DNA of 64,000 nt. Origin: Candidatus Hydrogenedens sp. (lineage in GTDB: Bacteria > Hydrogenedentota > Hydrogenedentia > Hydrogenedentales > Hydrogenedentaceae). The translations under genes were made by a program, and so were the position numbers. Below the pieces are notes generated by a model, which saw nothing but the letters and a program-made list of their open reading frames with translations, was not told the DNA's origin and ran no database searches. This document shows, piece after piece, positions 7,170 through 48,265 of the stretch. The stretch spans positions 32,001-96,000 of the forward strand of contig JBMFRC010000011.1 of the NCBI GenBank assembly GCA_049968235.1, read 5' to 3'. How positions within the stretch are numbered: the stretch's first letter is position 1; each line of letters begins with the position of its first letter.

Positions 7170-8558
7170 ATGGCTGATTATGATGTTATCGTAATAGGTG
7201 CTGGTCCAGGAGGATATGTTTCTGCAATTCGTTCCGCACAAAGAGGTGCCAAAACAGCAGTGATTGAGAAAAAATATTTAGGTGGGGTATGTTTAAATAT
7301 TGGTTGTATCCCGACAAAAACATTAATAAACACTGCGGGTCTCTACCGTAAGTTGAAAAAAATAGACGAATTCGGTATTCATGTTGGTAATGTCCAATTA
7401 GACCTTAATCAATTGAAGCAACGGAAAGATAAAGTCATTTCTTTAAATACCGGTGGTATTGAACGACTTTTCAAATCTTACCATATTGATTGGATTAAGG
7501 GCGAAGCAATCATTCATAAACCCAATGAAGTTACTGTTGATGGTAAACAAATTACCTCTAAAAACTTAATAATAGCCACGGGTGGGAGGCCTATCGAATT
7601 ACCTATTTTACCTTTCGATAAAAAACAAATTATTGATAGTTCGCAAGCGTTGGAATTAACAGAAATACCCGAGCGAATTGGTATTATAGGAGCCGGGGCT
7701 ATTGGGTGTGAATTTTCTAGTATCTGGAATAGTTTTGGAGCAGAAATACATCTTATTGAAATGCTACCGCATATTCTTCCAAAAGAAGATGAGGAACTTG
7801 CAAAAAGACTTGAATCTATATTCAAAAAGGAGGGTATTCAGGTTTATACAGGTAGCAAATTAAAAGGGGCAAAAATAAATGATGGTGGTATTACTCTTTC
7901 TATTGAAGGAAACAAAAATGTTGAAATTACAGTTGACCTTGTTCTTGTATGTGTAGGGATGCGATGTAATTCAGACTGTATACAGGAACCCCTTCGCAGT
8001 GCACTTAAAATCAATAAGAAAGGTGGAATTACAGTAAATGAGAAGATGGAGACAGGGGTTCCGGGTGTATATGCAATTGGTGATGTTATTGACCGTACAT
8101 GGCTGGCACATGGTGCTTCTAATGAAGGTATTGTAGCGAGCACAAATGCTACAGGTGGAAATAAGCGAATGGACTACCGTATTCTCCCAGCTTGTACCTT
8201 TACATTTCCGGAACTGGCAAGTGTTGGATTAACAGAAGCAAAGGCAAAAGAACTGGGTTATTCTGTTAAAACTGGGAAATTCCTCTTTTCTGGAAATGGT
8301 CGAGCACATACCATCGGTGAAGCAGAAGGTATGCTGAAGATAGTAGGTAATACTCACACAGATGAAATTTTAGGTGTCCACATTTTAGGACCGGAAGCAG
8401 GTGAAATAATAGCAATTGCCAGTGTTGCCATGAAATTGGAAAGCACTGTTGAAGAATTAGCAGAGACTATCTTTACACATCCTACTTTATCCGAAGTGTT
8501 AATGGAAGCCAGTGAGGACTATTATGGAATGAGTATTCATAGTCCTGCGAAAAAATAG
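7170..8558 (+). CDS. lpdA: Dihydrolipoyl dehydrogenase (E3)
   Basis: MADYDVIVIGAGPGGY FAD-binding motif. Redox disulfide GGVCLNIGCIPTK. C-terminal dimerisation region. Start set at ATG 7170; the ORF-track extension from 7074 overlaps E2. Confidence 0.9.
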   Translation: MADYDVIVIGAGPGGYVSAIRSAQRGAKTAVIEKKYLGGVCLNIGCIPTKTLINTAGLYRKLKKIDEFGIHVGNVQLDLNQLKQRKDKVISLNTGGIERLFKSYHIDWIKGEAIIHKPNEVTVDGKQITSKNLIIATGGRPIELPILPFDKKQIIDSSQALELTEIPERIGIIGAGAIGCEFSSIWNSFGAEIHLIEMLPHILPKEDEELAKRLESIFKKEGIQVYTGSKLKGAKINDGGITLSIEGNKNVEITVDLVLVCVGMRCNSDCIQEPLRSALKINKKGGITVNEKMETGVPGVYAIGDVIDRTWLAHGASNEGIVASTNATGGNKRMDYRILPACTFTFPELASVGLTEAKAKELGYSVKTGKFLFSGNGRAHTIGEAEGMLKIVGNTHTDEILGVHILGPEAGEIIAIASVAMKLESTVEELAETIFTHPTLSEVLMEASEDYYGMSIHSPAKK

Positions 8559-25400: not shown

Positions 25401-25824
25401 TTCCTAAATAGGATGGCCAGCCTGTCTGTATGGCAAGTGCTAACGCTTCCACTTTCAAACGATTGCCTGCATACGCCCAATATATACAATTACGAGTGGG
25501 TATCCCACCAATTAATGAAAAACTTCCCATAATTGTATCGAATAAACGTGCCTGGGCAGTATCTTTCATTCCATCAAAATCTAAATCAAGATTATCTGGA
25601 TTTCCTCCAATTAATGGGATTTTCGCATATAATTCCCGCATTGAATTTTCAAAACTTTCAGTATATACAGGACCGGGTATTAAATTATTGCAATTAGGAA
25701 TATTGCAATAATCCACTTCTGCATCTGTTTGTGCAACTGATGAAGAAGAAAAAACAAAACATACACTCATGATAAGGAACAAAGTTCCTATGTATATTTT
25801 GCTTGTATTAATCTTAATGTTCAT
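22456..25824 (-). CDS. Secreted multi-module Ca-binding protein: 2x ~220-aa domain, 3x calmodulin-like four-EF-hand modules, (xPEG)n linkers, duplicated C-terminal motif
   Basis: Signal peptide. Canonical EF-hand loops (DTNGDGKLTKNE, DKNGDGFMSFDE, DSNGDNQVTLTE, DIDGNGYLDC) repeat in three ~150-aa modules. Long (G/V/I/Q/T)PEG runs. C-terminal tandem ELLRVIQLFNSFGYHC / ELLRLIQFFNMGGYRIC. Confidence 0.6.
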   Translation of the reverse strand: MNIKINTSKIYIGTLFLIMSVCFVFSSSSVAQTDAEVDYCNIPNCNNLIPGPVYTESFENSMRELYAKIPLIGGNPDNLDLDFDGMKDTAQARLFDTIMGSFSLIGGIPTRNCIYWAYAGNRLKVEALALAIQTGWPSYLGTPPDLEGMKTFFAALATMGNTAIINTILSALNWIIPNLPDLSLLELDGSNIVYLNAKGDADLDGVCNIGEYKAWVVNTPADFDAFVNAAINSSITDYYGGCPACGAEGTVEGEGEGGGPPPCNMRSDENYFALLIMFGDTNGDGKLTKNELKAFVTGFLLDLGWWIIDKNGDGFMSFDEFVASNRLGGLLPANLDSNGDNQVTLTEIRQLSSKITQDQFNQHDIDGNGYLDCIDIMGPLPESCYAEWCWDNCNQTAVNAGFETALRSLYGIASFLSVNPDTADIDGNGMYDVAQARLLDYILAHPELPIFCCVKNAYMNNRVVAQSKWDSIPLLSTIFSNTTFINVVAGVLTTGEQSFINSIVNVIDTLMFWGTFTLNGYDLTAGQYLASAGDPDFDEVCNIGEYKAYVFAPTDIDTFILSALDINQTLNGGGCPPCPGTFEGEPPCDIDDITHYYYILIMFGDTDGNGLLSKEELKAITGWSDTVLLLWSAVDTNGDNQLSLEEFSKVEWLYNLLPGLDGNNDGALTLIELQNLNSNITMDQLNAVDLNQNGVLDCNDFVLPEGEGVVEGTPEGTPEGTPEGTPEGTPEGTPEGTQEGIPEGIPEGEGIVEGTPEGIPEGVIEGEPPTCDIDDIEHYFLIMLLFGDTNGDGLLSKSEFKSLTGWSDIIIAGVWYLVDKNRDNQLTFEEFTAVSSIFNLLPKLDSNGDNELTLTEVRALSSKITQDQFDVADKNDNGVLDCSDFLPSPEGEGTVEGSPEGIPEGQPEGIVEGTPEGVVEGTPEGQPEGVAEGIPEGQPEGVAEGTPEGVLEGTAEGVLEGQPEGVVEGTPEGIVEGTPEGIPEGVVEGTPEGIPEGQPEGIVEGTPEGIPEGVAEGTPEGEIPHGIHSADRNFNWKFEIGELLRVIQLFNSFGYHCEGSTEDGYAPGRNDSFHNCPPHTSDYAPQDWRIGLNELLRLIQFFNMGGYRICPEEEDGYCGGLK
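22760..23165 (-). repeat. 12-bp periodic in-frame tandem repeat encoding (xPEG)n, ~34 units
   Basis: Near-perfect 12-nt periodicity (ccttc[t/c]gg[n][t/g][t/g][n]c) is visible directly. It creates spurious long antisense ORFs. Confidence 0.8.
23530..23715 (-). repeat. Second 12-bp periodic (xPEG)n coding repeat block
   Basis: Same 12-nt unit encoding EGTPEGTPEGTPEG... Confidence 0.8.
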
Positions 25825-32916: not shown

Positions 32917-33008
32917 GTTTTTATACCAAATTTTCATGCTTATGATCTTTTTATGTTAAAATATATTTGGTATTATTTTATCTAATACATAAAGCAAGGA
33001 TATTTTGG

Positions 33009-36000
33009 ATGAAAGATTTATCTCTAATTTATAAGATGATAGGTAAAAAAAATTCGTATTCTTTTCTTTTTTCATTATTAATTTTTTTCTTTTTATTTAT
33101 TTGTTCGGGATTTTCAGAAGTAAATACGGGGCAAAAAACCGTAGAAAAACAGGGGATATTAAACATTACTCAAAGTCTCTCACAAAATCCGGATTGTGCT
33201 ATAGATTCTTTTCTTGATGTAACTGTTGAGTTAACATACACAGGAGAAGACCCCCTACTCACATTAGGTCTAAGGGAAATAGTGCCAGAAGGACTTGTTT
33301 ACGAAGAGATTATAAGTGGTTCCGCACCTCCACTCCAACCTTCAAGAGGGGCTTTTGGAACCTTAGAATTTGGTTGGATTTTTGTTCCCTCTTTTCCAGC
33401 CTCTTTTACGTTTCGTTTAAGATTTGCACAACCTATTAGTGGTAATCAATTTATTACAGGAATTGGTATTTTTGCATCATTTGGAGACCCTCAGGAAACT
33501 GAACCTGTCATTTCCTACTTTGACTGTCCAACTATTGAAGGTCAAACCGAAGGAGAAGGGATAGTCGAAGGTGAGGGGCAAATTGAAGGAGAGGGAATAA
33601 TCGAAGGAGAAGGGAGCATAGAAACAGTATATTTAAATATATCATCAAAATCAGGAGATATATATGCTCCCGAACAAGAAATGGAATTTGAAGTTAATAT
33701 TTCGTATTTAAATCCTCTGGAAATCACTGCCTTAGGAGCAACGGTATTTTTGCCTGAGTATTGGCAATTTGTTAAATTTACTGCGGGTTCTCCTCCGCCT
33801 ATTTATTATTTCGATACGGAAACAGGGAAAGCAGAATTTGCATGGATATTTCTTCCATCTGGAGGAATTACTTTTTCCTTTTCTGTCCTTGTTTCGCCTG
33901 AAACAGAGGGTATTCAGGAAATATCCGGTTATGGGATATATAGAACAACGGGAGAACCAATCACCACAACTATTTCGAAAATATATTTAACACCTGTCCC
34001 CAAACCAGACCTTACTTTGCTTTCGGGAATAGTTACACCGTCAAACCCTTTTTCCCAGGGGATTATATCAATTAACTACACGGCAAAGAATACAGGTTTT
34101 GTAAATATTGACAACAAAAGTTGGAGTGATTGTTTTTACTTATCTAATGATGAATGGCTTGATGAAACAGATGTTGAAATAACCTGTATCACCAATAATA
34201 CTTCTGTTGCGGTTGGCGGACAATATTCAAATTCATTAAAAGCAAAATTACCTTCTTCTGCATTTGGAAATATGTATCTTCTTGCTTACCTAAATAAGAC
34301 AAAGACTATTTATGAAGAATCAAGGGACAATAATGTTGGGGTTATAGGAATTATTCAAATACAAGCCAGAGAATATGATTTTCGACTAACTACAGGTATA
34401 ACAGAAGAGGATGTAGGCACACCTATTCCTATCAAAATATATGCGTATAATCCTGAAACCCTACAACCTGCTGTAAATAAACAAATCGTTTTGCAAATTG
34501 CTCATCGAGGATTCTCAAAAACTTACACTTTCACTACTGACCAGAATGGGGAAATAAATTATACATATTTCCCTATATCCAACACAGAAGGAGGGATATA
34601 TAGCATATCTATCAGAGACCCAAGGGAAGAAGATTATCCTATTACTGAAGAAGTCTTATTGCGAGGACTTGCGATAACCCCCTCCCACTATTTTCTTGAG
34701 GTTATACCTAACAAAACATATACCATTCCCTTTAATATTATCAATTTAGGGGATACGGAAGAAAAGCAATTATCATTCATGATAACAGGAATACCTCCTG
34801 ATTGGAATTATGATTATGTTATTCCTTCCTCAATACAGGGACAATCTAAAGAAACTTGTAAACTTATCCTTTATTCCAAGCCAACAACACAGAATAGCTT
34901 CCCTATAATGCTTAATTTACAAAGTAATTCAAAAACTCTTGCAACCGCTCAATATGATATTCTACCCAAACCCTATCAAACGGTAATAACATCTATTCCT
35001 GAAGAGGTTTCTTTACCTTTACTTCTCGAGAAAACTCAGTTTTATACGATAGAACTAAAAAATCAAGGAGGAAAAGATTCAGGACCCGCTCGAATACAAA
35101 TCGAACCTGAAAACCCGAATATTCATTTAGTTACTCCAAACACAGTTTACAATATTCCAGCAGGTTCAAGTTATTTCGTTTCATTACAGGTAGGAATCCC
35201 ATTTATAGAAATTCCAGAACCTATAGAGACATCCCTATCTATTCGTTTTGAATCGGGATTAAATGTGAGCATTCCTATAAAAGTTATTGAGGATACGACA
35301 AAAAGTTTAACAATAAATGTATTTAACAAATATACGAATGAAGCTATCCATAATGCTTCCGTTTCTATCGTTAGTGAAACAGGTATTCTTTCTACTTCTC
35401 AAATCAATAATGATGGAATAGTTGAAGTTAATAATCTACCTGAACCTCCTTTTTCTATTGTAATACTAAGTGAGGGATTTGAAAGCCAGACCTATTTTAT
35501 ATCAAATTTAAAGAGCAATCACGAAATGATTGATATTTATTTAGAACCGTTCTTATCTAAACAATTCTGGTCTTACACAATCGATAATAATCAGAAGCTA
35601 TATCTACTATCAGTATCCAATAGTTCTGCTCTTGAACCAGACAACACTTCTGTATTAACAATATCGCCAGGTTATATTCCTTTTATTACAACAGAAATAT
35701 CTCATAATTCTACACTTTCCATTACCAATCAAGGGATTAAACCTTTATATGATGTTTATTTATATCCATTCCAAACTGACTTATTAAATATACAGTATCC
35801 TGTTCAATACTTAGGAACAATAGAACCGCAATCTTCTGTTAATATTCCTGTCCTTTCACAGATATCAGAATCATTTGATTTTGATTCCTCGTGTTCTTCA
35901 TCGATCTTGACGGGTATCATTTTTTCGGAACAAACTAACAATTCGGATATATCCCAATTTATGGTAATGCCTTTATGGAATACAGAAGTTTTATGTCCGG

Positions 36001-39000
36001 ATTTTACTCCTATCTATGGGGATTTTTATCAAATAAATAGAATAAATCCTGATACAACCATTGTTCCAGTAAACATTCAAATATCCCTGCCAGATAATCA
36101 ATCCAATCAAAATGTACCTATTCTTTCCTACGCAACCGGGCAAATGACCTTAGCCACAGGAGAAATTCTACCCATTGTAATGAAAACTGCTACTCGGACA
36201 GGGCTTTATGAGCAAATAGATATTCAATGGCAAATTCATAATGCGGAAAACAATGAGGATATAACTTCTCTATTCCAGATATTTGAATTATCTAATTTTG
36301 AGAAAACAGATTTGTTTAATAATATAGAGAAAAAACAATGGTTACTTTATCCCTTGCATGAATTTTGGGAAAACCCGATATCGGAAATTCGATTATTCGC
36401 ACAAATTCATATTATTTCATTACTGGGGACATGGGATATATCCTCTCCCCCGCTACCTTTGAAGATTCTTTCACAACCTATACTTATGGAACATATATTT
36501 GCTCCTCAAATTCACGAATTGCAAATTTCTTCCAGTGCGGATAACTCAGGAGAAACGGTTCTACCTTTAGCGATTCTTATTTCTCCAACAGATAATATTA
36601 ATCTCCCTATAAAATTTGAATGGGAGAATATTCAATATTTACATGAAACAGGAAATATTGCTTCCTTATCCTTAATCCAAACGGCAATAAATGGAATAGG
36701 AACGCAATATCAACAAATCACATATAACAACATTTCTTTGCAGAAAGAAAAAACCAACTCTTATTTGTGGTACTTTTTATCTCCACCTCTTTCAAATAAA
36801 TGGCAGTTAGTTTCTCGATGGACTTACAAAGACAATAAGGGTACTCTTTTACCCCTTATTACCAGGGAACAATATCATGATTTACTGCATACTATTGAAG
36901 TTACAGGAGAAAATGCTTCAATAACAACTGGATTACTTAGTAATGATGATAATGATGAACAGAGAATACCTGATATTATCTATTTGCCGGATGGAAAAAC
37001 CTTAAGTATATCTACACCCTCCAATCCTATCTGGGTGTCTATAAATAATTCCCACAGAGAATATGGTATTGTCTATAGTTCTTCACAACAGTCTGATTAT
37101 GTTTATTTGCATTCCAATTTTCCGGAGGATGTTCCTGAAGATGCCGTTATCCTCCGTATCCTTAGAAGCGATTCAACTGTTATTCCATCTGCCAATTATT
37201 GGGTTAGTAAATCTATGAATATGAGTCATAAACATGACCCTGTAAAACCTTCCTTACATTTTGTTGATAAATCGGGCTACAACTCATATATTGTGGAATT
37301 TCAATCCGAATCGTTAGAGAATAAGCCTCCTATCGCTAATGCAGGAGAGGACATAACAAATGTATATCGTCCCTCATCTATAACTCTTGACGGGTCTGGG
37401 TCCTATGACCCGAATGGAGACCGAATTAATTATTCATGGCGTCTTATCAGCAAACCTCTTGAGAGTTTTGAATATCTAAGAAACGCAGATACAGCAAATC
37501 CCATTTTAATTCCAGACCTTCCCGGAACTTATATTGCACAACTTATTGTTTCTGATGGTTTTGCTCAAAGTGAACCCGATACGGTTGTTATTGAAGTTGT
37601 TAATCGTTTACCGGAGATTGTAATTAATGCTCAACAAAAAGCAAGACCTCGCGATATCGTTGTCTTAGATGCATCATCCGTAGTAGACCCTGATGGAGAT
37701 GAAATAGAATTTTTATGGAAACTGGCAACCAAACCCGATGGTAGTCGTGTATCACTACAGGGAGTTTTTAATAATACAATAACAATTACACCGGATGTAT
37801 TGGGTCAATATGAATTTATCTTATACATATCAGATGGCTTTGACAACTCATTTGCCCATTGGAAATTAGATGTTTACAACCATCTCCCTGAAATTGCAAT
37901 CGGGTTTCCACCGACTGTTTATTTAAATACAAATGTATCTATTTCTGCACGGGATACTTTTGATATTGACAACGACCCATTATCTTATCAATGGAGATTG
38001 GTTTCTGCACCGGTGGGAAGCAATACAATACTTAGTTCTTTTACTCAGCCCGAAACCAGTTTTGTATCCGATAAAAGAGGCACTTATACATTAAAACTTG
38101 AAGTTTTTGATACTTATGAAAAAACAGACAAGACAATTTCTTTACAATGTGTTAATAGGAAACCTCAAACAATTGTAAATCCCAGTGCTATTGAAGTTCC
38201 ACATGGTAAAACGGTTATTTTCGATGCTACGCAAAGTTCAGATTTAGATAATGACCCACTCACTTTTAATTGGGGACTTCTTTCCCGTCCTATATTAAGT
38301 AGTGCGGAAATTTATTTAATTCAAAACAATATAGCTGGGTTAAAAACAGACGCACCTGGAAAATATAGTGTAACCTTACAAATAAACGATGGATTTGAAT
38401 CGGGTGAGATAGTAATATCTCAAATCACAGCAACCAATAATCCTCCAGAGATACAATGTCCGGAACAACCTATTCCAGGTTCAGTAGGACAACCTTTAAC
38501 AATACTATTACCCGAAATAAATGACCCGGAACAGGACCCTATCACATATTCATGGGAAATTATTTCAAAACCAGTAGAAAGTATGATAGGTCTCATTAAC
38601 TCTGTAGAGCCTGCATTTACATTCACACCTGACCGTAAAGGAACTTATGAAATTCAAGTTATAATATCCGACGCATGGGGAGGTAATACATCTTGTGTTA
38701 TTACAACAGAAATTACCAATCAACGCCCTGTGGCGGTAATTCAATCCGAGACGCAGAGTTTTATAAATACTCCTGTATCTCTATCAGCAGAAAGTAGTTA
38801 TGACCCGGATGGGGATGTTATAAAAGATTATCAATGGACAATTATCAGCAAACCACAGGGAAGTTTTGCTCAATTGTCCAACCCTACAGGTGTTACAACA
38901 CAACTGATTCCTGACAAACACGGCAATTATCAGGTGCAACTTCAAATTTATGATGGTAATATGTGGAGTAATCCTGCCATAACAACAATCACCACGGAAA

Positions 39001-40826
39001 ACCGTCCACCTGTAATAACTGTCATTGCATCTGAATATCTTGAAATTGGGGCTTCTAATGTTTTAGATGCTTCTTTAAGTTATGACCCGGATGGAGATGA
39101 GCTTTCCTTTAACTGGAAACTTATCGATAAGCCCAAACAAAGTAAAACGGAATTAAATAGCGATAACGAATCTATTTGTTCCTTTATACCCGATTATCCA
39201 GGATACTATTCTATTGAATTACTTGTCTCAGACCCATATTCTTCTGTATCTCGTTCCGAAATCGTTCTCCGAACCTTTAATCTTCCACCGATAGCAATCA
39301 TATCTGCACCTCAAATAATAAAAGTGGGAGATGAAGTAGTATTAGATGGGACAAACAGTTATGACCCGGATGGAGATTTGATTACATACCAATGGCAATT
39401 ATCTTTTCGCCCTAATGATAGTCAAACTACTTTAAGTTCATTAACAGAACCTATAACACAATTGTATATTGATAAAGCGGGAACTTATACTATCGAACTT
39501 CAAGTCAACGATGGAAAAACGACATCGGATATAAGTACTATCTCCCTCTCAACAGGAAATGTTGCCCCTACTGCTGTCGTGGAAAAAGATAAAAATGCTG
39601 TTGTGGGAAGACCATGTTATCTCGATGCAAGCGCCAGTTTTGACCCTAATAACGATGAGTTAGTTTACATCTGGACATTCATATCCCGACCTGATGGAAG
39701 TCAGGCAGAAATTTTTGAAACGAATTCCCCCAATCCTTACTTCATACCCGATGTCGAAGGTAATTACGAAATACAATTAATTATTTCTGATGGGTACCTG
39801 TTTAGTAAACCTGTTGTTATCCGTATTAGTACCACAAACAATCCTCCAGTAGCACAATTAAAACAAGATGAGTTCCAAGTATATGTGGGGGATACTGTTA
39901 TTATTGACGGTTCAGATAGTTATGACATAGATAATACTTCTATTTACTATGAATGGATATTATTCTCAAAACCTGAAGATAGTAAACTCACAATTCAAAA
40001 TGCTGACCAACCTATTATTACATTAAACATAGACAAAAAAGGGTTCTATCAGGGAACTCTTGTTGTTAATGATGGATTTTTAAGAAGTAATATAGTAAAT
40101 TTCCAGATTACATGTATAAATCATCCTCCTATTGCTATTATCAAAGGACCTGAAACTGCATTTATTGGAGATACAATAACCCTGGATGGCTCGGATAGTT
40201 ACGATTCTGACATGGATGTATCTGAATTAGGGTATAAGTGGTCTATTGTTTCGATGCCAACAGGGAGTTCTGTTACACTGTTAAATCCAAACTTAAAAGT
40301 TATTAATTTTATGGTGGACATAGACGGAGTTTATGAATTTCAACTTATTGTAAATGACCAGGAAACCGATAGTAGCCCCGTAACTCACAAGATAATTACA
40401 ACCTGTAATAAACCTGCACATCCATCAGGGGTTTATGCAACCGATGGAATTTACCCTGACAGGATATTTATTTCATGGAATTCTTCACCGGGGGCTGTGG
40501 AATATCGTGTTTATAGAAATGATGAAGATAACCTTGCCTCTGCCGTCCCTATATCACCATGGACAGGTAACCTTTATTATGAAGACACAATAACTATAGA
40601 TGTTCCGGAACCCAGTAAAACTGCTTGTGGATGTTCTGCTAATTGCAATGAAATGTGCAATCCTCTGGAAACAACCATAACGAAATTTTATTGGGTCATT
40701 GCAAGAATTAATGAAAACTGCGTCAGCGAATTTAGTAATTCGGAAAGTGGTTCTATTACGGTTTCTTCTTCCAATCAAAAGTTACCGAACTTTATTTGCA
40801 ATATTTTAAGAATTTTCATGAAGTAA
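33009..40826 (+). CDS. Giant secreted/surface adhesin-like protein (2605 aa): signal peptide, (GEGxIEGEG)n linker, CARDB-like domain, long middle region, 11 tandem PKD-like ~93-aa repeats, C-terminal FN3-like domain
   Basis: Start at ATG 33009 ahead of a hydrophobic signal. EGEGIVEGEGQIEGEGIIEGEGSIE linker. CARDB-like segment LTLLSGIVTPSNPF...NTGFVNIDN...WSDCFYLSNDEWLD. Repeats share A.AG.D..........LDGS.S.DPDGD...Y.W..ISKP.GS. C-terminal Fn3-like GAVEYRVYRND. Confidence 0.75.
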   Translation: MKDLSLIYKMIGKKNSYSFLFSLLIFFFLFICSGFSEVNTGQKTVEKQGILNITQSLSQNPDCAIDSFLDVTVELTYTGEDPLLTLGLREIVPEGLVYEEIISGSAPPLQPSRGAFGTLEFGWIFVPSFPASFTFRLRFAQPISGNQFITGIGIFASFGDPQETEPVISYFDCPTIEGQTEGEGIVEGEGQIEGEGIIEGEGSIETVYLNISSKSGDIYAPEQEMEFEVNISYLNPLEITALGATVFLPEYWQFVKFTAGSPPPIYYFDTETGKAEFAWIFLPSGGITFSFSVLVSPETEGIQEISGYGIYRTTGEPITTTISKIYLTPVPKPDLTLLSGIVTPSNPFSQGIISINYTAKNTGFVNIDNKSWSDCFYLSNDEWLDETDVEITCITNNTSVAVGGQYSNSLKAKLPSSAFGNMYLLAYLNKTKTIYEESRDNNVGVIGIIQIQAREYDFRLTTGITEEDVGTPIPIKIYAYNPETLQPAVNKQIVLQIAHRGFSKTYTFTTDQNGEINYTYFPISNTEGGIYSISIRDPREEDYPITEEVLLRGLAITPSHYFLEVIPNKTYTIPFNIINLGDTEEKQLSFMITGIPPDWNYDYVIPSSIQGQSKETCKLILYSKPTTQNSFPIMLNLQSNSKTLATAQYDILPKPYQTVITSIPEEVSLPLLLEKTQFYTIELKNQGGKDSGPARIQIEPENPNIHLVTPNTVYNIPAGSSYFVSLQVGIPFIEIPEPIETSLSIRFESGLNVSIPIKVIEDTTKSLTINVFNKYTNEAIHNASVSIVSETGILSTSQINNDGIVEVNNLPEPPFSIVILSEGFESQTYFISNLKSNHEMIDIYLEPFLSKQFWSYTIDNNQKLYLLSVSNSSALEPDNTSVLTISPGYIPFITTEISHNSTLSITNQGIKPLYDVYLYPFQTDLLNIQYPVQYLGTIEPQSSVNIPVLSQISESFDFDSSCSSSILTGIIFSEQTNNSDISQFMVMPLWNTEVLCPDFTPIYGDFYQINRINPDTTIVPVNIQISLPDNQSNQNVPILSYATGQMTLATGEILPIVMKTATRTGLYEQIDIQWQIHNAENNEDITSLFQIFELSNFEKTDLFNNIEKKQWLLYPLHEFWENPISEIRLFAQIHIISLLGTWDISSPPLPLKILSQPILMEHIFAPQIHELQISSSADNSGETVLPLAILISPTDNINLPIKFEWENIQYLHETGNIASLSLIQTAINGIGTQYQQITYNNISLQKEKTNSYLWYFLSPPLSNKWQLVSRWTYKDNKGTLLPLITREQYHDLLHTIEVTGENASITTGLLSNDDNDEQRIPDIIYLPDGKTLSISTPSNPIWVSINNSHREYGIVYSSSQQSDYVYLHSNFPEDVPEDAVILRILRSDSTVIPSANYWVSKSMNMSHKHDPVKPSLHFVDKSGYNSYIVEFQSESLENKPPIANAGEDITNVYRPSSITLDGSGSYDPNGDRINYSWRLISKPLESFEYLRNADTANPILIPDLPGTYIAQLIVSDGFAQSEPDTVVIEVVNRLPEIVINAQQKARPRDIVVLDASSVVDPDGDEIEFLWKLATKPDGSRVSLQGVFNNTITITPDVLGQYEFILYISDGFDNSFAHWKLDVYNHLPEIAIGFPPTVYLNTNVSISARDTFDIDNDPLSYQWRLVSAPVGSNTILSSFTQPETSFVSDKRGTYTLKLEVFDTYEKTDKTISLQCVNRKPQTIVNPSAIEVPHGKTVIFDATQSSDLDNDPLTFNWGLLSRPILSSAEIYLIQNNIAGLKTDAPGKYSVTLQINDGFESGEIVISQITATNNPPEIQCPEQPIPGSVGQPLTILLPEINDPEQDPITYSWEIISKPVESMIGLINSVEPAFTFTPDRKGTYEIQVIISDAWGGNTSCVITTEITNQRPVAVIQSETQSFINTPVSLSAESSYDPDGDVIKDYQWTIISKPQGSFAQLSNPTGVTTQLIPDKHGNYQVQLQIYDGNMWSNPAITTITTENRPPVITVIASEYLEIGASNVLDASLSYDPDGDELSFNWKLIDKPKQSKTELNSDNESICSFIPDYPGYYSIELLVSDPYSSVSRSEIVLRTFNLPPIAIISAPQIIKVGDEVVLDGTNSYDPDGDLITYQWQLSFRPNDSQTTLSSLTEPITQLYIDKAGTYTIELQVNDGKTTSDISTISLSTGNVAPTAVVEKDKNAVVGRPCYLDASASFDPNNDELVYIWTFISRPDGSQAEIFETNSPNPYFIPDVEGNYEIQLIISDGYLFSKPVVIRISTTNNPPVAQLKQDEFQVYVGDTVIIDGSDSYDIDNTSIYYEWILFSKPEDSKLTIQNADQPIITLNIDKKGFYQGTLVVNDGFLRSNIVNFQITCINHPPIAIIKGPETAFIGDTITLDGSDSYDSDMDVSELGYKWSIVSMPTGSSVTLLNPNLKVINFMVDIDGVYEFQLIVNDQETDSSPVTHKIITTCNKPAHPSGVYATDGIYPDRIFISWNSSPGAVEYRVYRNDEDNLASAVPISPWTGNLYYEDTITIDVPEPSKTACGCSANCNEMCNPLETTITKFYWVIARINENCVSEFSNSESGSITVSSSNQKLPNFICNILRIFMK
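37320..40420 (+). repeat. Array of 11 diverged tandem ~280-bp units encoding PKD-like Ig-fold domains
   Basis: Protein-level periodicity read directly from the translation. The units are diverged at DNA level. Confidence 0.7.
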
Positions 40827-41204
40827 TTTTAGTTATAGAGAATTTGATAGGCTTATAGTCTATATATTTTGGTAATGCGATATTAATTTCAATATAAAAA
40901 ATGAGATGCAATAGATGAGTAAAAAGAGTCTGATATAATAGAAGAGATAATTCTATACTTTGCCTATAAATCAGCAGAAAATACATCTCTTCTGGAATTA
41001 ATTTCGAAGAACACGGATGGGATAAATGGGAAAAAAGTGTGTAGCAGGGAAAAATTTTTTAGGATATAGGTTAAAAAAAATTGTTCCTTTTATTTTTTGC
41101 AATGAGGTTTCTTTTATTGTTTATAATATAACTGTTAGATATTAAACTGTTTTAATAGAAGGTAAATTTATACGATTAAAGCAAGAGCAGGCAAAGGAAA
41201 CCTT

Positions 41205-41810
41205 TTGTTAGGTATCGGAGCCACATTAATTTTGCGATTATTGGGGTGGAGAGTACAGGGACCGCCTCCTCCCTATCCGAAATATGTTGTGATTTTTGCT
41301 CCCCATACATCAAACTGGGATGGATTGGTAGGGATTTTGTGTAGTTTTGCATTACGGGTTCGTGGAAACTGGCTGGGTAAAGGTTCATTATTCAAAGGTG
41401 TTTTTGGATGGTTTTTAAAAAAGATCGGAGGAATTCCTGTAGACCGTTCTACACCCAACCGATTCGTAGAACAGGCTGAAGAACTTTTTGAAGGAAATGA
41501 ACAGGTGGTCCTTGCAATTGCTCCTGAAGGGACAAGGGAATTCAGTAACCATTGGAAAAGTGGTTTTTATCATATCGCCTATCATTCCAGAGTTCCTATT
41601 GTTCTCGGATTCTGGGATTATAGGACCAAAAGAGTTGGAAATTCCGGTATTGCAGTAATGCCAACAGGAAATATTGAAGAAGATTTAAAGATTATTCGCG
41701 ACACATATAATCAATTTTTACCGAAATATCCTGAATGTAGAAGCCTTGTTCAGTTCAAAGACACACAAATCCTGCAAATAAACAAAGCATCCCAACAAGA
41801 CCGCAAATAA
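41205..41810 (+). CDS. PlsC-like lysophospholipid acyltransferase family protein
   Basis: HTSNWD matches the H(X)4D acyltransferase motif. PEGTRE matches the second conserved block. 201 aa. Confidence 0.6.
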   Translation: MLGIGATLILRLLGWRVQGPPPPYPKYVVIFAPHTSNWDGLVGILCSFALRVRGNWLGKGSLFKGVFGWFLKKIGGIPVDRSTPNRFVEQAEELFEGNEQVVLAIAPEGTREFSNHWKSGFYHIAYHSRVPIVLGFWDYRTKRVGNSGIAVMPTGNIEEDLKIIRDTYNQFLPKYPECRSLVQFKDTQILQINKASQQDRK

Positions 41811-41890
41811 AAATTTGTAAAATTGCTATCATTTTTGTAATATTACTCATAAACATAAAATTCAATAAAAACAATTAAAGGGTATGAGAT

Positions 41891-42691
41891 ATGGGAACAT
41901 TATCCTGTCCTTTCTGCAAAACAAAACAAGGTAATATTCAAAACGACATTAAAGCCTCGATTTACTTAAAGGCGGTATTACCAACTCTTGTTGACCTCGT
42001 TCAGTTAGATAAACCTGCAAAAGATTTAATTAACTCTGTAAACGAGAAGATACTCTTTTCGCTCCGAAATGGAGAAAAAACCTTTTTGAGGATTGAAAAT
42101 GGAGAGATTTTATATTCTCCTGAAAAAAAGGATAATCCAACTATCCATATTCTTCTTATAAGCCCGGAACATGCGGTTCAAGTTTTTGAACAAGGGAAAC
42201 TTCCTTTCTTATTAAAAGGTTTTACACGAATTTCTTTTCTTAAGAAAAATTTTGATGCTCTTACCAAACGATTGGAGTATTACTTAAAAGGTCCCCAAAG
42301 TTATACAGAAGAAGAGAAAAAAATATATGCGATACTTCAACTTAAAACCGCTCTTCGTTCTGCGGAAGTTCTTGCCGAAAAAGAGGAAGTATCTAAAAAG
42401 ATACTTGCAGGTACACCTGAGGGCATATTAAAAGTAGCCATAGAAAGCATTGATTTTGCTGTATATTTTGGGAAAGTAGACGGGAAATGGAGATATATAG
42501 ACCAACTATCGGGACAGAAATTTAATTCGGTATTAAGCTTAAAGGACCTTGAAACAACAGAACTTTTGCTTACAAACAAACTGGATACATTTGCAGGTTT
42601 AGGATTAGGGAAAATTCATATTTCCGGCATTATACCCATTATTGATAATGTAGGACTGGTTTTAGGGCGTATTACTCAATATATTTCTTAA
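41891..42691 (+). CDS. SCP2-like domain protein (paralog of 45878..46657)
   Basis: The N-terminal ~130 aa aligns with the downstream paralog: AVLP..., RNGE.T, F..GKL.LP..KGF...S.L. The GKL...KG pattern resembles the SCP2 sterol-carrier fold. Confidence 0.4.
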   Translation: MGTLSCPFCKTKQGNIQNDIKASIYLKAVLPTLVDLVQLDKPAKDLINSVNEKILFSLRNGEKTFLRIENGEILYSPEKKDNPTIHILLISPEHAVQVFEQGKLPFLLKGFTRISFLKKNFDALTKRLEYYLKGPQSYTEEEKKIYAILQLKTALRSAEVLAEKEEVSKKILAGTPEGILKVAIESIDFAVYFGKVDGKWRYIDQLSGQKFNSVLSLKDLETTELLLTNKLDTFAGLGLGKIHISGIIPIIDNVGLVLGRITQYIS

Positions 42692-42711
42692 ATCATAAAG
42701 GAGTTGTATTT

Positions 42712-43950
42712 ATGCAAGTTTTCAACTATACCGAAAATCAAAAATGGTTTGAAAGAGCAACTCGTGTTATTCCCTGTGGAGTATATGGACATTTCAGTCC
42801 TGCTCCATGTGTTCCGACGAATGCCTATCCTTTCTTTAGCACTCGTGCAGATGGTTGTAAATTCTGGGATGTAGATGGAAACGAATTTATTGATTACATG
42901 TGTGCTTATGGTCCTATGATTATGGGGTATCACAATCCTGTGGTAGATGAAGCATTTATAAAACAATTGAAACAAGCGGATGCAAATAGTATTGCTTCTA
43001 CCAAAATGGTGGAGTTGGCAGAGTTTTTAGTTGATTTAATTCCTGTAGCAGATTGGGCATTTTTTGCTAAGAATGGAGCGGATGTAACAAATTATGCAGT
43101 GATGATAGCACGGGCAGAAACAGGCAGGAAAAAAATTATTGCTATAAAGGGTGGGTATCATGGAACAGCACCCTGGATGCAGGGAATTGGTCATCCCGGG
43201 GTTACAGAAGAAGATGTAGTTAATGTCATTCGAATTCCATGGAATGACCTGAAAGCATTGGAACAAGCACTGGAAGAAAACTATGGACAGGTTGCTGGCT
43301 TTATTTCTTCTCCATATCATCACCCTGTATTTACAGATAATGAGTATCCTGCAGAAGGTTACTGGGATGGTGTTCAGAAGTTATTAAAGAAACATGGTGT
43401 TGTTTTAATCTGCGATGATGTTCGTGCAGGTTTTCGACTTCATTTAGGGGGTTCTAACGAATATTTTAAGTTCAAACCTGACCTGATATGTTTTTGTAAA
43501 GCTATTGCCAATGGCTATCCGATATCTGCACTTGTGGGCAAAGAAGAATTAAAAGTAACAGCATCGAAGGTATTTCATACCGGCAGTTATTGGTATTCTG
43601 CTGCATTTATGTCTGCTGCCATAGCCAACCTTAATGAATTAAAAAGACTAAAGGCACCGGAATATCTGGAACAATTGGGGAACAAATTTAATGAAGGACT
43701 AATTAAATTAGCAAGAGATTATGGATTTAATTTGAAAGTTACAGGGCATCCTGCAATGGCATATTATCGGATTACAGATGACCCGAGTTTACAACTTCAT
43801 CAAAGATGGTGTGCGGAATGCACACGACGGGGTGCTTTTTTCACTTCACACCACAATTGGTTCTTATCGATGGCGCACACGGATGCGGACATTCAAAAAA
43901 CATGGGAAATTTGCGAGGAAGCATTTAAGGTAATAAAATCATCTATATAA
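42712..43950 (+). CDS. Class-III (HemL/GSA-aminomutase-like) PLP-dependent aminotransferase
   Basis: KIIAIKGGYHGTAPW matches the GxYHG signature. DDVRAGFR PLP-binding region. 412 aa. Confidence 0.8.
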   Translation: MQVFNYTENQKWFERATRVIPCGVYGHFSPAPCVPTNAYPFFSTRADGCKFWDVDGNEFIDYMCAYGPMIMGYHNPVVDEAFIKQLKQADANSIASTKMVELAEFLVDLIPVADWAFFAKNGADVTNYAVMIARAETGRKKIIAIKGGYHGTAPWMQGIGHPGVTEEDVVNVIRIPWNDLKALEQALEENYGQVAGFISSPYHHPVFTDNEYPAEGYWDGVQKLLKKHGVVLICDDVRAGFRLHLGGSNEYFKFKPDLICFCKAIANGYPISALVGKEELKVTASKVFHTGSYWYSAAFMSAAIANLNELKRLKAPEYLEQLGNKFNEGLIKLARDYGFNLKVTGHPAMAYYRITDDPSLQLHQRWCAECTRRGAFFTSHHNWFLSMAHTDADIQKTWEICEEAFKVIKSSI

Positions 43951-43982
43951 TATTAAAAAGATTTGTAGAGGAGTAATCAATT

Positions 43983-44828
43983 ATGCCCTTAACAGAACTG
44001 GAACACAAAGAACTTAAAACTATTGCAAAAAAGATAAGAAAGGACATTGTAGATGTTACCCATTGGTCAGGAGGAAGTCATATCGGTGGGTCTTTAAGCA
44101 TGGTGGATTTTATGGTTGTTCTTTACTGGAAATATATGCGAATAGATCCTAAAAATCCATCGTGGGAAGACAGAGACCGTCTGGTATTGAGTAAAGGACA
44201 TGGAGGTGTAGGACATGCTGTTATCCTTGCAAATCGTGGTTATTTTGATTTTGAACTATTAAAAGAATTCAATCAATTTGGTTCTGCTTTTGGTATGCAT
44301 TTAGATTCTAAAAAAGCCACCGGAGTTGAAGCCTCTACGGGTTCTATGGGGCATGGTCTTTCTCAGGCACTGGGCATGGCTTTAGGAGCCCGGGTATTAA
44401 AAAAAGATTGGAAAATTTACGCCGTTATTGGTGATGGTGAGTGTAATGAAGGTTCCATCTGGGAGTCAGCTATGGCTGCAAGTCATTATAAGACTGGCAA
44501 CCTTATTGGCTTTTTAGACCGTAACCATATGATGATTGATGGACCCACGGAGTCGGTTATGAGTCTGGAACCCATTGATAAGAAATGGGAAGCATTCGGT
44601 TGGTATACACAGGTCATTAATGGCCATGATATGTCCCAGATATGCGATGCCATTGATAAAGCACTCGCTTATAACGAAGGACCTTCCATGATTATATGTG
44701 ATACTATCAAAGGCAAAGGTGTCGATTTCATGGAAAACAATCCGGCATGGCATTATGGCGGACTTAATGCTGAACAAGCGGAAAAAGCAAAACTTTCTAT
44801 AGATAAAATGTATCCAGATGTCTCATAA
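43983..44828 (+). CDS. Transketolase, N-terminal (thiamine-diphosphate-binding) subunit
   Basis: GHGGVGHAVILANRGYF and the GDG(X)n-N TPP-binding motif IGDGECNEGSIWE. 281 aa is typical of split transketolases. Confidence 0.85.
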   Translation: MPLTELEHKELKTIAKKIRKDIVDVTHWSGGSHIGGSLSMVDFMVVLYWKYMRIDPKNPSWEDRDRLVLSKGHGGVGHAVILANRGYFDFELLKEFNQFGSAFGMHLDSKKATGVEASTGSMGHGLSQALGMALGARVLKKDWKIYAVIGDGECNEGSIWESAMAASHYKTGNLIGFLDRNHMMIDGPTESVMSLEPIDKKWEAFGWYTQVINGHDMSQICDAIDKALAYNEGPSMIICDTIKGKGVDFMENNPAWHYGGLNAEQAEKAKLSIDKMYPDVS

Positions 44829-44861
44829 AAATTAACCCATTATATTGATAGGAGAAGTAAT

Positions 44862-45878
44862 ATGAGCCCTGTGGGAGGTTTAACATGGACGGTATATGAT
44901 GCCGACAAAATGACCCAAGCAGAAACATACGGACTTGTTTTAAGTGAATTGGGGAAAATAAACCCCAAAATAGTAGGTCTTTCCGCAGACTTAGCCAAGT
45001 CCACTAAAATTGGGAAGTTTGGAGAGAAATTTCCAGAGCGTTTTTTTAATTTAGGTATAGCGGAACAAAATATGTTTGGTGTAGCGGCAGGTTTAGCTAA
45101 AGTAGGACTTTTACCTTTTGTCTCTACATTTTCAGTTTTTGCATCCATGCGTGCAGTAGAATTTTTAAGAACTGATATTTGCTATCAGAATTTAAATGTA
45201 AAAATTATAGCAACGCATGGTGGAACCTCCTTTGGTTCTGCGGGGACAACGCACCATTCTATAGAAGACCTTTCTATTATCCGTGCTATCCCTAATATAC
45301 AACTTATTGTGCCTGCAGATGCGGTTGAAACAGCATTAGCGGTTCAGGCATGTGTGGAAGTTGAAGGTCCTGTATATATACGAATTGGACGCAGTTTCGA
45401 ACCTCGTGTGTATCAAACAGACCAATACGGGTTTCAAATTGGTAAAGCGGTAGAAATGAAATCTGGCACAGATGTAACGGTTATAGCTTGTGGTGCAGTT
45501 GTTTACCATGCTGTAGAAGCGGCGAATATCCTGGAACGGGAAGATGGTATATCGGTTCGCGTCTTAAATATGCACACCATCAAACCCATTGACCGTGAAG
45601 CCATTTTGAAAGCACTTATGGAAACACGAAGGATTGTTACTTTTGAAGACCATAATGTTATTGGTGGTTTAGGTAGTGCGGTAAGTGAAGTAATTGCAGA
45701 AAGTGGGAAATCGTGTGCATTTACTAAGGTAGGGATACCCGACCAGTTCACACCTCACGGTTATCCTGAGGATTTGATGCATTATTATAAAATTGATACA
45801 GATGGTATTGTAGAAAAGGTTAGAGAATTGCTTGGAAAGGAATTTGAAAAAGAAGAAGACTGGGAGGATGAATACTAA
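44862..45878 (+). CDS. Transketolase, C-terminal (pyrimidine-binding) subunit
   Basis: FNLGIAEQNMFGVAAGLA and the C-terminal transketolase domain. 338 aa. Its stop overlaps the next start as TAATG. Confidence 0.85.
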   Translation: MSPVGGLTWTVYDADKMTQAETYGLVLSELGKINPKIVGLSADLAKSTKIGKFGEKFPERFFNLGIAEQNMFGVAAGLAKVGLLPFVSTFSVFASMRAVEFLRTDICYQNLNVKIIATHGGTSFGSAGTTHHSIEDLSIIRAIPNIQLIVPADAVETALAVQACVEVEGPVYIRIGRSFEPRVYQTDQYGFQIGKAVEMKSGTDVTVIACGAVVYHAVEAANILEREDGISVRVLNMHTIKPIDREAILKALMETRRIVTFEDHNVIGGLGSAVSEVIAESGKSCAFTKVGIPDQFTPHGYPEDLMHYYKIDTDGIVEKVRELLGKEFEKEEDWEDEY

Positions 45879-46657
45879 TGGTGGAAAATGAAAAGGATAT
45901 TTTAATTTCAAAAATCATCTTACGAGCGGTTCTACCTGTTATAAAGGTATTATTAGAAGACCATCCTGCATTTCAGAAACGGTTTAAGGATGTTCAAGGC
46001 ACGGTTCAATTTACAGCCCGAAATGGGGAACAAACCGCTGGAGCCTGTATAAAATTTGATAAGTTAAATTTTGAAATATCTTATGAATTGTTAGAAAAAC
46101 CGGATATAAGTTTTCATTTTAGTTCATTGAAAAAGATGAATGATTTTTTTACAGGCAAATTAGTTTTACCTAAAATTAAAGGGTTTAAAAATTTCTCTTT
46201 ACTGTGGAGAATGTTTAGTGTTCTTTTGAAATTAAAATTACTTATGCCGGATGCCAGGCCTAAAAATCCGGTCGATAAAAGAATTAAAGTTAAAATGACT
46301 TTATACATGGTGTCAACTGCTTTAAGTCAGTTAAACAAATCCGGTGATGTTGATATGGTCAAGTGGACATCAAAACAGCCGGAACGAATATATCAGTGGT
46401 CCGTAGATAACGAAGATATTGCATGCTGGCTGAAAATCAAAGCGGGACAATCCAAAGCAGGAAGGGGGTATTATACTTTACGAAAGCCGTTTGTCCACAT
46501 GCGTTTTCCGGATATAGACTCTGCGATACCTGTATTAACAAACTCCGTAGATACGGTTCAAGCCATGGCACAGGGCTTACTAATCACGGAAGGTTCCCCG
46601 GAGTATGCAGCAAAGTTGGGTGATTTTATGTTAAAAATAGCCGAATTGCTAACATAA
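45878..46657 (+). CDS. SCP2-like domain protein (paralog of 41891..42691)
   Basis: Aligns with the upstream paralog across the N-terminal half. Translationally coupled to the transketolase C subunit. Confidence 0.4.
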   Translation: MVENEKDILISKIILRAVLPVIKVLLEDHPAFQKRFKDVQGTVQFTARNGEQTAGACIKFDKLNFEISYELLEKPDISFHFSSLKKMNDFFTGKLVLPKIKGFKNFSLLWRMFSVLLKLKLLMPDARPKNPVDKRIKVKMTLYMVSTALSQLNKSGDVDMVKWTSKQPERIYQWSVDNEDIACWLKIKAGQSKAGRGYYTLRKPFVHMRFPDIDSAIPVLTNSVDTVQAMAQGLLITEGSPEYAAKLGDFMLKIAELLT

Positions 46658-46801
46658 AACATTGTAAAAAATTATTTAATTTTTTCTGAATAAACATCCT
46701 TTCATATCTTACTTTGTCCATTATTCTTCAAGTTGTAAATTCCATTTTAAAATCAATACTATAATTACACTTTTTACTTAAACTTCAATTTATTTTTAAA
46801 G

Positions 46802-48265
46802 ATGAAACAGGAAGTAACATTAAAATTAGCATTAATTCCATGCATTATTCTTATTTCTTTATTAGTCATTAATGTCTGGATATTTGGAGATGAGGCTACT
46901 TCGGGACCCTGTCAGGTTGCTCTTCTGATATCCTCCATTATAGGAGGGATTATTGGTCATACGAAATTAGGGCTTTCTTACAGAGAAATAGAACGAAATG
47001 CAATACATTCAATTGTTCTTGCGATGGAAGCCATTATTATTCTCCTGGTCGTGGGTGCAACAATTGCTTTATGGATTCAAGGAGGTATTGTGCCAAGTAT
47101 TATTTACTATGGCATCCAGATACTAACCGCTAAATCCTTTCCTATAGTAGCCTGCATTATTTGTTCCATCGTTTCATTAGCCATTGGGAGTAGTTGGTCC
47201 ACAATGGGTACGATTGGGGTAGCCCTTATGGGGATTGGAAAAGCCTTAGGCTATTCAGAATCTCTGGTGGCGGGGGCTATTATTTCAGGTGCCTATCTTG
47301 GAGATAAAATGTCTCCCCTATCCGATACTACCAATCTTGCACCTGCCGTTAGTGGAACCAATCTTTTTAGACATATAAGGAACATGCTAAACACAACTAT
47401 ACCTGCTTATATTCTGACTTTAATTATTTTTCTTTGTATTGGATTGTTCTCACATACAAAAGGACAGGACATTCTCCAAACAGATGAAATTATTCGGGGT
47501 TTGGAACAGAATTTTTTTATTCATTGGTCTTTCTTTATCGTTCCTCTTATTGTTATTCTCCTTGCTATAAAACAAACGCCCGCAATACCGGCACTTACAG
47601 TGGGTTGTATTTTAGGAGGAATACTTGCGTTTGCATTCCAAAATAGTTATCCTGAAAATGTCCATCAAATTCCTTCCTTTATCTCCAAAAATTATAAAAG
47701 TATCATTTATGTGGCTTACCATGGATACAAATTAGAGAGTGGTATTCCTGTTCTGGATGATTTATTATCTGCGGGTGGTATGGAAAGAATGTTTTCTACA
47801 ATTTCTCTTATTATTATGGCAATGTTATTTGGAGGTGTGATGGAAGCCACAGGAATGCTTCAGAAGATAGCGGAATCTATATTGAACCATGTTCATTCTG
47901 CAGGGGGATTAATGATTTCTACAGTATTGAGTTGCATCATTTTTAACATATTAGCAGCGGAACAATATTTAGCCATTGTTATACCCGGTAGAATGTATCG
48001 GGCATCATATATAGCGAGACATCTGGATATGAGGAATTTATCCCGGACCTTAGAAGATGGTGCGACTGTAACCTCTGTATTAGTTCCATGGAATACCTGC
48101 GGAGCCTTCGCAAGTTCCGTTTTAGGGACTTCTACATTTCATTATCTCCCCTTTTGTTTCTTTAACTGGATAACGCCTATAGTATCCATTCTTATGTCTA
48201 TGATAAATTATAATATTATTCCTGCGGAGAAACAGGAAAATGAAACACAAACACACAAAGAATGA
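46802..48265 (+). CDS. Na+/H+ antiporter NhaC-family membrane transporter
   Basis: About 12 TM helices. Gly-rich helix pairs typical of the NhaC family. 487 aa. Confidence 0.55.
   Translation: MKQEVTLKLALIPCIILISLLVINVWIFGDEATSGPCQVALLISSIIGGIIGHTKLGLSYREIERNAIHSIVLAMEAIIILLVVGATIALWIQGGIVPSIIYYGIQILTAKSFPIVACIICSIVSLAIGSSWSTMGTIGVALMGIGKALGYSESLVAGAIISGAYLGDKMSPLSDTTNLAPAVSGTNLFRHIRNMLNTTIPAYILTLIIFLCIGLFSHTKGQDILQTDEIIRGLEQNFFIHWSFFIVPLIVILLAIKQTPAIPALTVGCILGGILAFAFQNSYPENVHQIPSFISKNYKSIIYVAYHGYKLESGIPVLDDLLSAGGMERMFSTISLIIMAMLFGGVMEATGMLQKIAESILNHVHSAGGLMISTVLSCIIFNILAAEQYLAIVIPGRMYRASYIARHLDMRNLSRTLEDGATVTSVLVPWNTCGAFASSVLGTSTFHYLPFCFFNWITPIVSILMSMINYNIIPAEKQENETQTHKE

Follow-up and report, generated by a model that had tools for sequence, protein, structure and literature searches.

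A 64,000-nucleotide stretch of DNA from Candidatus Hydrogenedens sp. (assembly GCA_049968235.1, contig JBMFRC010000011.1, positions 32,001 to 96,000; hereafter the window) carries a compact cassette in which a split transketolase and a class-III aminotransferase are accompanied by two paralogous proteins with predicted SCP2 folds, here called proteins A and B. Five of its genes, namely those for protein A, the aminotransferase, the N- and C-terminal transketolase subunits (TK-N and TK-C) and protein B, form a unit that is conserved across phyla, the core of which is TK-N, TK-C and protein B. The proposal that follows is a tentative one, to which we assign somewhat less than an even chance: the module would interconvert a long-chain aldehyde and a long-chain 2-amino-1,3-diol (i.e., a sphingoid-type base), the tail of which would be held by the SCP2 proteins.

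The distribution of the cassette was scanned in one genome per species with an alignment of protein B homologues as the query, and relatives of protein B were detected at 411 matching places in these species-representative genomes. The best 80 of the 411 places were fetched for locus analysis, and the window proteins were searched against them with tblastn. The fetched loci belong to Hydrogenedentota, Desulfobacterales (including Desulfatibacillum alkenivorans and Desulfosudis oleivorans), Spirochaetota/Leptospiraceae and one Myxococcota genome, and the closest species genome in the scan was that of Ca. Hydrogenedens terephthalaticus. TK-N and TK-C were located directly upstream of protein B in 66 of the 67 loci with enough sequence, an arrangement that is far beyond chance. 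The aminotransferase was found upstream in 45 of 57 loci, 42 of which also contain protein A, placed directly upstream of the aminotransferase. The order of the genes is rearranged in the Myxococcota locus (L064: TK-N, TK-C, B, A, aminotransferase), where protein A still adjoins the aminotransferase despite the change. Identity to the window proteins across phyla was 67-77% for TK-C, around 60% for the aminotransferase and around 50% for protein B. The original prediction, made from the window alone, had regarded these genes as a dedicated cassette instead of an accidental neighbourhood and had suggested examining whether the aminotransferase, the split transketolase and the SCP2 proteins keep together in other genomes; they are co-conserved across phyla at the frequencies given above. 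We limit the conserved unit to five genes because the remaining neighbours in the window, i.e., an acyltransferase, an NhaC-type transporter and a polyprenyl synthase, are adjacent to it only in close relatives of Hydrogenedens. Some of the contigs in this set (L009, L010, L014, L020, L022, and others) are labelled as Nitrospirales, Nitrospiraceae, Verrucomicrobia or Bathyarchaeia, and the cassette proteins encoded in them are 56-80% identical to those of Hydrogenedentota. The Nitrospirales, Bathyarchaeia and Verrucomicrobia labels probably reflect a binning or naming problem in those sets of metagenome-assembled genomes.

Both transketolase subunits were recognized by the models of the family. 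PF00456 (Transketolase_N) matched TK-N with an E value of 2.6e-49, PF02779 (Transket_pyr) and PF02780 (Transketolase_C) matched TK-C with E values of 5e-41 and 6e-32, and the NCBIfam transketolase model scored 235.6 and 276.8 bits with the two subunits against a cut-off of 488. Their nearest solved structures are those of the split transketolase of Carboxydothermus hydrogenoformans (267 bits between TK-N and 6YAK, 313 bits between TK-C and 6YAJ), which has the same two-chain architecture, thiamine diphosphate (ThDP) motif and catalytic glutamate and histidines. The cassette transketolases of the fetched loci (59 copies of TK-C and 53 of TK-N) were aligned with this enzyme and with human transketolase. 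Residues are given in the numbering of Escherichia coli transketolase, and the mapping was checked on H416, D424 and Q428 of the human enzyme. The ThDP motif was retained (GDGECNEG...DRN in the TK-N of the window), the equivalent of Glu411 was Glu in 59 of 59 copies, and those of His26, His66, His100 and His473 were present in all cassette copies, as were the equivalents of the phosphate-binding residues Ser385, His461 and Arg520. Thus, the proteins have the ThDP motif, the catalytic Glu and the four catalytic or donor histidines of a transketolase, and they lack the canonical Asp469/Arg91 pair. The equivalent of Asp469 (Asp424 in the human enzyme) was Ala or Gly in all 59 copies, and that of Arg91, its salt-bridge partner, was Asn in 53 of 53. 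Further replacements affected the GHP motif around His100, which reads MHL in all 53 copies (Gly99 to Met and Pro101 to Leu), Pro27 (Ile or Val in 51 of 53), Pro69 (Val, Met, Leu or Cys in 53 of 53) and Leu466 (Phe in 59 of 59). Arg358, which also binds phosphate, was more variable: its equivalent was Ala in 39 of the 59 copies, among them that of the window; 16 copies have Arg, and 2 have Ser or Lys. Of the 150 nearest cluster representatives of TK-C (clustered at 50% identity), 86 retain Asp469 and 116 retain Arg358. Compared with the C. hydrogenoformans enzyme, the cassette transketolase has Ala for Asp469, Asn for Arg91, MHL for GHP and, in the window, Ala for Arg358, and, unlike ordinary split transketolases, it comes with an SCP2-fold partner of its own. 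The initial suspicion that this transketolase is a specialised one is supported by the substrate-binding positions, which differ from those of ordinary transketolases in every copy.

Asp469 of transketolase binds the 2-hydroxyl of the aldose acceptor, while His100 and His473 read the C1 hydroxyl of the donor in the ordinary enzyme. In E. coli transketolase, for which the Asp469-Arg91 salt bridge has been described, substitutions of D469 opened the enzyme to non-polar aliphatic and then to aromatic aldehydes (PMC5073344). Since the catalytic residues are retained, Asp469 and Arg91 are lost, and the E. coli D469 variants accept non-polar aldehydes, the cassette transketolase, which to judge from its residues is catalytically intact with a remodelled acceptor site, should carry out ThDP-dependent ketol chemistry on an acceptor without a sugar-type 2-hydroxyl. 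The donor would be a hydroxylated two-carbon unit and not acetyl, because the equivalents of the two histidines that read the donor C1 hydroxyl (H100 and H473) are retained. Around 40% of the nearest TK-C representatives (P0121-P0270) also lack the canonical Asp469 and have Ala, Gly, Leu, Ser, Asn or Tyr instead, often with THH in place of THQ just after this position. For this reason, there may be many uncharacterised transketolase-like clades with non-sugar acceptors.

A metagenomic protein of 601 amino acids (P0148), retrieved among the nearest TK-C cluster representatives, consists of a TK-C part, a Ser/Thr/Pro-rich linker and a full double-SCP2 protein B. The TK-C part is 45% identical to that of the window, with Ser at the position of Arg358 and Gly at that of Asp469, and the protein B part is 32% identical to its window counterpart (E 7e-38; E 2e-40 by hmmsearch). 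Judging from this fusion and from the overlap between the stop codon of TK-C and the start codon of protein B in the window, protein B acts together with the transketolase and is probably a subunit of it.

Proteins A and B share 25% identity over 240 amino acids (BLASTP, E 9e-9), and their profile-profile comparison reached a probability of 99.5%. The paralogy, previously placed in the N-terminal ~130 amino acids, is therefore real and extends over the full length. A search with the Pfam SCP2 model (PF02036), which had been proposed as a check, detected a weak match in the C-terminal half of protein B only (22.5 bits against a cut-off of 21.3, E 1.5e-4) and none in protein A, for which there were no Pfam matches of any kind. 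Hardly any matches were returned when both proteins, whole or as separate halves, were scanned with Pfam and NCBIfam, the SCP2 scores of the halves being below the cut-off. Since sequence models barely detect A and B, the SCP2 fold was assigned from predicted structures, according to which both halves of each protein have this fold, so that each is a tandem of two SCP2 folds; the original prediction, which recognized the N-terminal one, was correct but incomplete. Within protein A, the first and second halves share homology (hhalign 96.7%, E 4e-10). A direct homologue search with protein A, based on a word index, returned only 17 close relatives, and the more distant members of its family came from the tblastn search of the protein B loci. 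Compared with SCP2 carriers and SCP2-domain helpers such as UbiJ, the cassette differs in that two SCP2 folds are arranged in tandem within ~260 amino acids, in that there are two paralogues, each tied to one enzyme, and in that the similarity to the Pfam SCP2 family is marginal. We also considered a UbiJ-like role in quinone synthesis together with the downstream polyprenyl synthase, which was discarded, as the latter gene is adjacent only in the Hydrogenedens clade.

The aminotransferase belongs to class III (PF00202, E 2e-41, 142 bits against a cut-off of 30.5), and its best solved relative is the aminopentol aminotransferase FumI (6HBS), with 297 bits and 39% identity over 401 amino acids. 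The window motif CFCKAIANGYP aligns with CWGKCFANGYP of FumI, including the lysine that binds pyridoxal phosphate (PLP). Glutamate-1-semialdehyde aminomutases are more distant (167 bits for the best of them). The top NCBIfam match was GntE, far below its cut-off, followed by the HemL models, which reached about half of theirs (218 versus 527 bits for TIGR00713 and 229 versus 398 for NF000818). An identity as HemL was rejected on these scores, and the earlier description of the enzyme as HemL-like proved too loose. Instead, its similarities place the protein in a FumI-like branch of class III, FumI being its closest characterised relative. The substrate of FumI is hydrolysed fumonisin B1, a long-chain 2-amino-3-hydroxy compound which the authors compared with sphinganine; the enzyme removes its 2-amino group and prefers pyruvate as the amino acceptor (PMC3136697). 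In parallel with this preference, 8-10 loci of Desulfobacterales and Spirochaetota have a gene for alanine dehydrogenase (PF01262 and PF05222) next to the cassette; all such loci with enough upstream sequence also have the aminotransferase, which is in line with an alanine/pyruvate couple for this enzyme. In several Desulfobacterales loci (L045, L048, L050-L052, L083, L084, and others) the alanine dehydrogenase gene lies just upstream of protein A or the aminotransferase. The L045 group also has a divergent TetR-family regulator, which is likewise found in Spirochaetota loci, and in L045 itself a glycyl-radical enzyme and its activase adjoin the alanine dehydrogenase and TetR genes. FumI, from Sphingopyxis sp. 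MTA144, has the same class-III PLP fold as the cassette enzyme and acts on a long-chain 2-amino-3-hydroxy lipid. It differs in belonging to the fumonisin-degradation cluster of an alphaproteobacterium, and we saw no mention of its having a transketolase or an SCP2 protein as a partner.

We infer the substrate, the chemistry and the direction of the pathway from these features as follows. The module would consist of two enzyme-plus-carrier pairs, protein A with the FumI-type aminotransferase and the split ThDP transketolase with protein B, and the SCP2 proteins would hold the hydrophobic tail of a long-chain substrate. The aminotransferase would interconvert a 2-amino and a 2-keto group next to a 3-hydroxyl, using alanine/pyruvate, and the transketolase-like enzyme would make or break the C2-C3 bond of the alpha-hydroxy-ketone thus formed, so that a long-chain aldehyde and a two-carbon ketol unit would be in exchange with a 1,3-dihydroxy-2-ketone. 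The net reaction would be the interconversion of a long-chain aldehyde and a long-chain 2-amino-1,3-diol; in the catabolic direction, the two-carbon unit would be handed to a sugar phosphate. The original prediction had likewise put forward ketol transfer and transamination on a lipid-like substrate, an idea that fits an aminotransferase closest to FumI. The same logic is known from other systems. Within the anisomycin cluster, the transketolase AniP, whose donors are aromatic keto acids, is presumably paired with the aminotransferase AniQ. A natural transketolase acts in anisomycin biosynthesis (PMC11387542), and the sequence of transketolase and then transaminase is an established way of making chiral amino-alcohols in the laboratory (PMC5813273). 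In both, a ThDP enzyme builds an alpha-hydroxy-ketone of which the keto group is then aminated by a transaminase; these systems differ from the cassette in using small polar or aromatic substrates and in having no SCP2 proteins.

As for the direction, we lean towards the catabolism of sphingoid-like amino-alcohols. FumI is catabolic, a sugar phosphate could be accommodated in the retained phosphate site as acceptor of the two-carbon unit, and Hydrogenedentota are predicted degraders of lipids, fatty acids and necromass (PMC10866078). The neighbouring genes, moreover, resemble a set for uptake, deamination and oxidation. In addition to alanine dehydrogenase, the lineage-specific neighbours comprise a divergent TetR regulator (11 loci), major facilitator superfamily (MFS) transporters, acyl-CoA dehydrogenases and, in 3 loci, a FadB-like protein; the Myxococcota locus has an aldehyde dehydrogenase gene that diverges from TK-N. 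All of these suit the uptake and breakdown of a lipid-like compound. No further gene was conserved beside the cassette across all lineages in the fetched loci.

Several observations weigh against the interconversion of long-chain aldehydes and amino-diols. Twelve of the 57 loci have no adjoining aminotransferase, meaning that the transketolase and protein B can stand alone, and no enzyme that makes or consumes fatty aldehydes is broadly conserved beside the cassette in the fetched loci. The predicted SCP2 fold of proteins A and B is suggestive only and no proof of lipid binding, and the many invariant polar residues of protein B are unusual in a passive carrier. Identity of 39% to FumI is insufficient to fix substrate specificity in this class of enzymes. 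The retained equivalents of Ser385, His461 and Arg520 suggest that at least one substrate may be a sugar phosphate, and in one lineage of Hydrogenedentota (L001), which has no aminotransferase, a 6-phosphogluconate dehydrogenase gene ~600 nt downstream provides a link to the pentose phosphate pathway.

This last gene would suit an ordinary pentose-phosphate transketolase with functionally unrelated neighbours, as would the scores of the two subunits, which together roughly reach the NCBIfam cut-off for transketolase. We nevertheless regard this housekeeping role as very improbable: Asp469 and Arg91 are absent from all cassette copies, whereas Asp469 and Arg358 are frequent among the nearest representatives, the synteny with protein B holds almost without exception in four phyla and is complemented by the fusion of the two, and the cassette TK-Cs of different phyla are much closer to that of the window than the split transketolase of C. 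hydrogenoformans is. A different possibility is a soluble pathway for an amino-ketose or amino-polyol, with the transketolase acting on sugar phosphates, the aminotransferase on a small ketose or aldehyde, and the SCP2-fold proteins serving as scaffolds or regulators. The retained phosphate-binding residues and the polar residues of protein B speak for it, as do the top NCBIfam match of the aminotransferase, which is to the small-molecule transaminase GntE ahead of the HemL models, and the precedent of a natural transketolase acting on small molecules in anisomycin biosynthesis. We judge such a pathway to be unlikely, given that two tandem-SCP2 proteins dedicated to the module, of which one also occurs in fusion with the transketolase, are hard to explain without a hydrophobic ligand, that the residues that read sugar hydroxyls (Asp469 and Arg91) have everywhere been lost to smaller or non-polar replacements, and that the score with FumI is far above that with any small-molecule aminotransferase of known structure.

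Finally, the proposed lipid chemistry could run in the opposite direction, with a ketose phosphate or hydroxypyruvate as the source of a two-carbon ketol unit, the transketolase adding this unit to a fatty aldehyde and the aminotransferase aminating C2, so that sphingoid-type bases would be made without serine palmitoyltransferase and end up as a membrane or signalling lipid. A biosynthetic role is plausible because the cassette is very widespread in Hydrogenedentota and its sequences are strongly conserved, as expected of a core function. It also agrees with the order of the proven synthetic route to amino-alcohols (PMC5813273), with the acyltransferase directly upstream in the Hydrogenedens clade, and with the report of 1-deoxyceramides from unidentified source organisms in anoxic waters (PMC8311935). 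On the other hand, the closest characterised aminotransferase is catabolic, the neighbours in other phyla (TetR, alanine dehydrogenase, MFS, aldehyde dehydrogenase and beta-oxidation genes) look catabolic as well, neither a fatty acyl reductase nor a ceramide synthase is conserved nearby, the link to the acyltransferase is restricted to one genus-level clade, and our survey of the literature on sphingolipids in the carrier lineages found no report of them. Biosynthesis thus seems to us rather unlikely, and the specific version of it in which an SCP2-held fatty aldehyde receives a two-carbon ketol from the transketolase and an amine from the FumI-type aminotransferase, independently of serine palmitoyltransferase, distinctly so.

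The cassette and its flanking transporter are detailed in Table 1. Six open reading frames (ORFs) on the + strand were verified within positions 41205-46657, in agreement with the initial description of six co-directional genes with short or overlapping junctions; the gaps between them are, in order, 80, 20, 32 and 33 nt, followed by a 1-nt overlap in which the stop codon of TK-C and the start codon of protein B are merged as TAATG.

Table 1. Genes of the cassette and the adjoining transporter in the window
Feature	Position	Strand	Basis and remarks
PlsC-type acyltransferase, 201 aa	41205-41810	+	PF01553 and HTSNWD motif; neighbour, outside the conserved module
Double-SCP2 protein A, 266 aa, putative aminotransferase partner	41891-42691	+	Paralogy to protein B
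Class-III PLP aminotransferase, FumI type, 412 aa	42712-43950	+	PF00202; similarity to 6HBS
Transketolase-like N subunit (TK-N), ThDP-binding, 281 aa	43983-44828	+	PF00456; similarity to 6YAK
Transketolase-like C subunit (TK-C), pyrimidine-binding and C-terminal domains, 338 aa	44862-45878	+	PF02779, PF02780
Double-SCP2 protein B, 259 aa, putative transketolase partner	45878-46657	+	Paralogue of protein A
NhaC-family transporter	46802-48265	+	TIGR00931, 407 bits (cut-off 370)

The first of these genes encodes a genuine member of the acyltransferase family (PF01553, E 3.9e-11, 43 bits against a cut-off of 23) with HTSNWD as its H(X)4D motif, and the 1-acylglycerol-3-phosphate (AGP) acyltransferase model TIGR00530 scored 39 against a cut-off of 103. 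It had been seen as part of the pathway, a view that we abandoned. The gene adjoins the cassette only in L005-L009 and L034, all of them close relatives of Hydrogenedens, orthologues with 53% and 47% identity are located away from any cassette, and the family is very large and general, with 5300 homologues. The ORF begins with TTG and has 201 codons, compared with 206-212 amino acids in close homologues, and its true start and N-terminus are hence uncertain. The NhaC-type transporter is adjacent only in L005-L007, L009 and L010, and lies ~4 kb away in L013.

An Rfam scan of positions 40500-47000 returned no matches, hence no riboswitch, including the thiamine pyrophosphate (TPP) type, and promoter and terminator scans yielded fewer sites than expected by chance. 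Directly upstream of the cassette, and separated from the acyltransferase ORF by 378 nt, is a giant ORF of 2619 amino acids (32967-40826, + strand) whose C-terminal half contains many repeats of ~90 amino acids of the type ...D.S.S.D.DGD...Y.W...; its product is probably a secreted or cell-surface protein. Elsewhere in the window, positions 5807-8558 (+ strand) encode the E2 component of a 2-oxoacid dehydrogenase, with lipoyl, E3-binding and catalytic domains, followed by an overlapping E3 gene; there is no adjoining E1 gene, and a mannitol dehydrogenase is located upstream. A protein of 1122 amino acids with many matches to EF-hand-type calcium-binding repeats (PF00036, PF13405 and PF13499) is encoded at 22456-25824 (- strand).

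The folds and families of all five proteins of the module were already known, and we found no description of the cassette in the literature on this gene combination. The novelty lies in a naturally occurring clade of transketolases whose acceptor site is remodelled and which have a tandem-SCP2 partner of their own, in most cases coupled to a FumI-type aminotransferase. The hypothesis lends itself to direct testing, since cultured organisms, among them Desulfatibacillum alkenivorans and Desulfosudis oleivorans, carry the cassette, and its five small proteins are all predicted to be soluble.

Transketolases are assigned to sugar-phosphate metabolism. This picture would be extended by a natural clade that is widespread, has a dedicated subunit with a lipid-carrier fold and lacks the sugar-reading Asp in its acceptor site, and the engineered E. 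coli variants suggest that the same site change opens transketolase to non-polar aldehydes. Together with the FumI-type aminotransferase, the module is a candidate route for making or degrading sphingoid-like amino-alcohols in anaerobes and uncultured lipid degraders, and we know of no such pathway in its carriers. The environments in which these live have yielded reports of amino-lipids whose source organisms are unidentified (PMC8311935). If the biosynthetic direction were the true one, the cassette would point to an unrecognised class of amino-lipids in Hydrogenedentota, some Desulfobacterales and some Spirochaetota.

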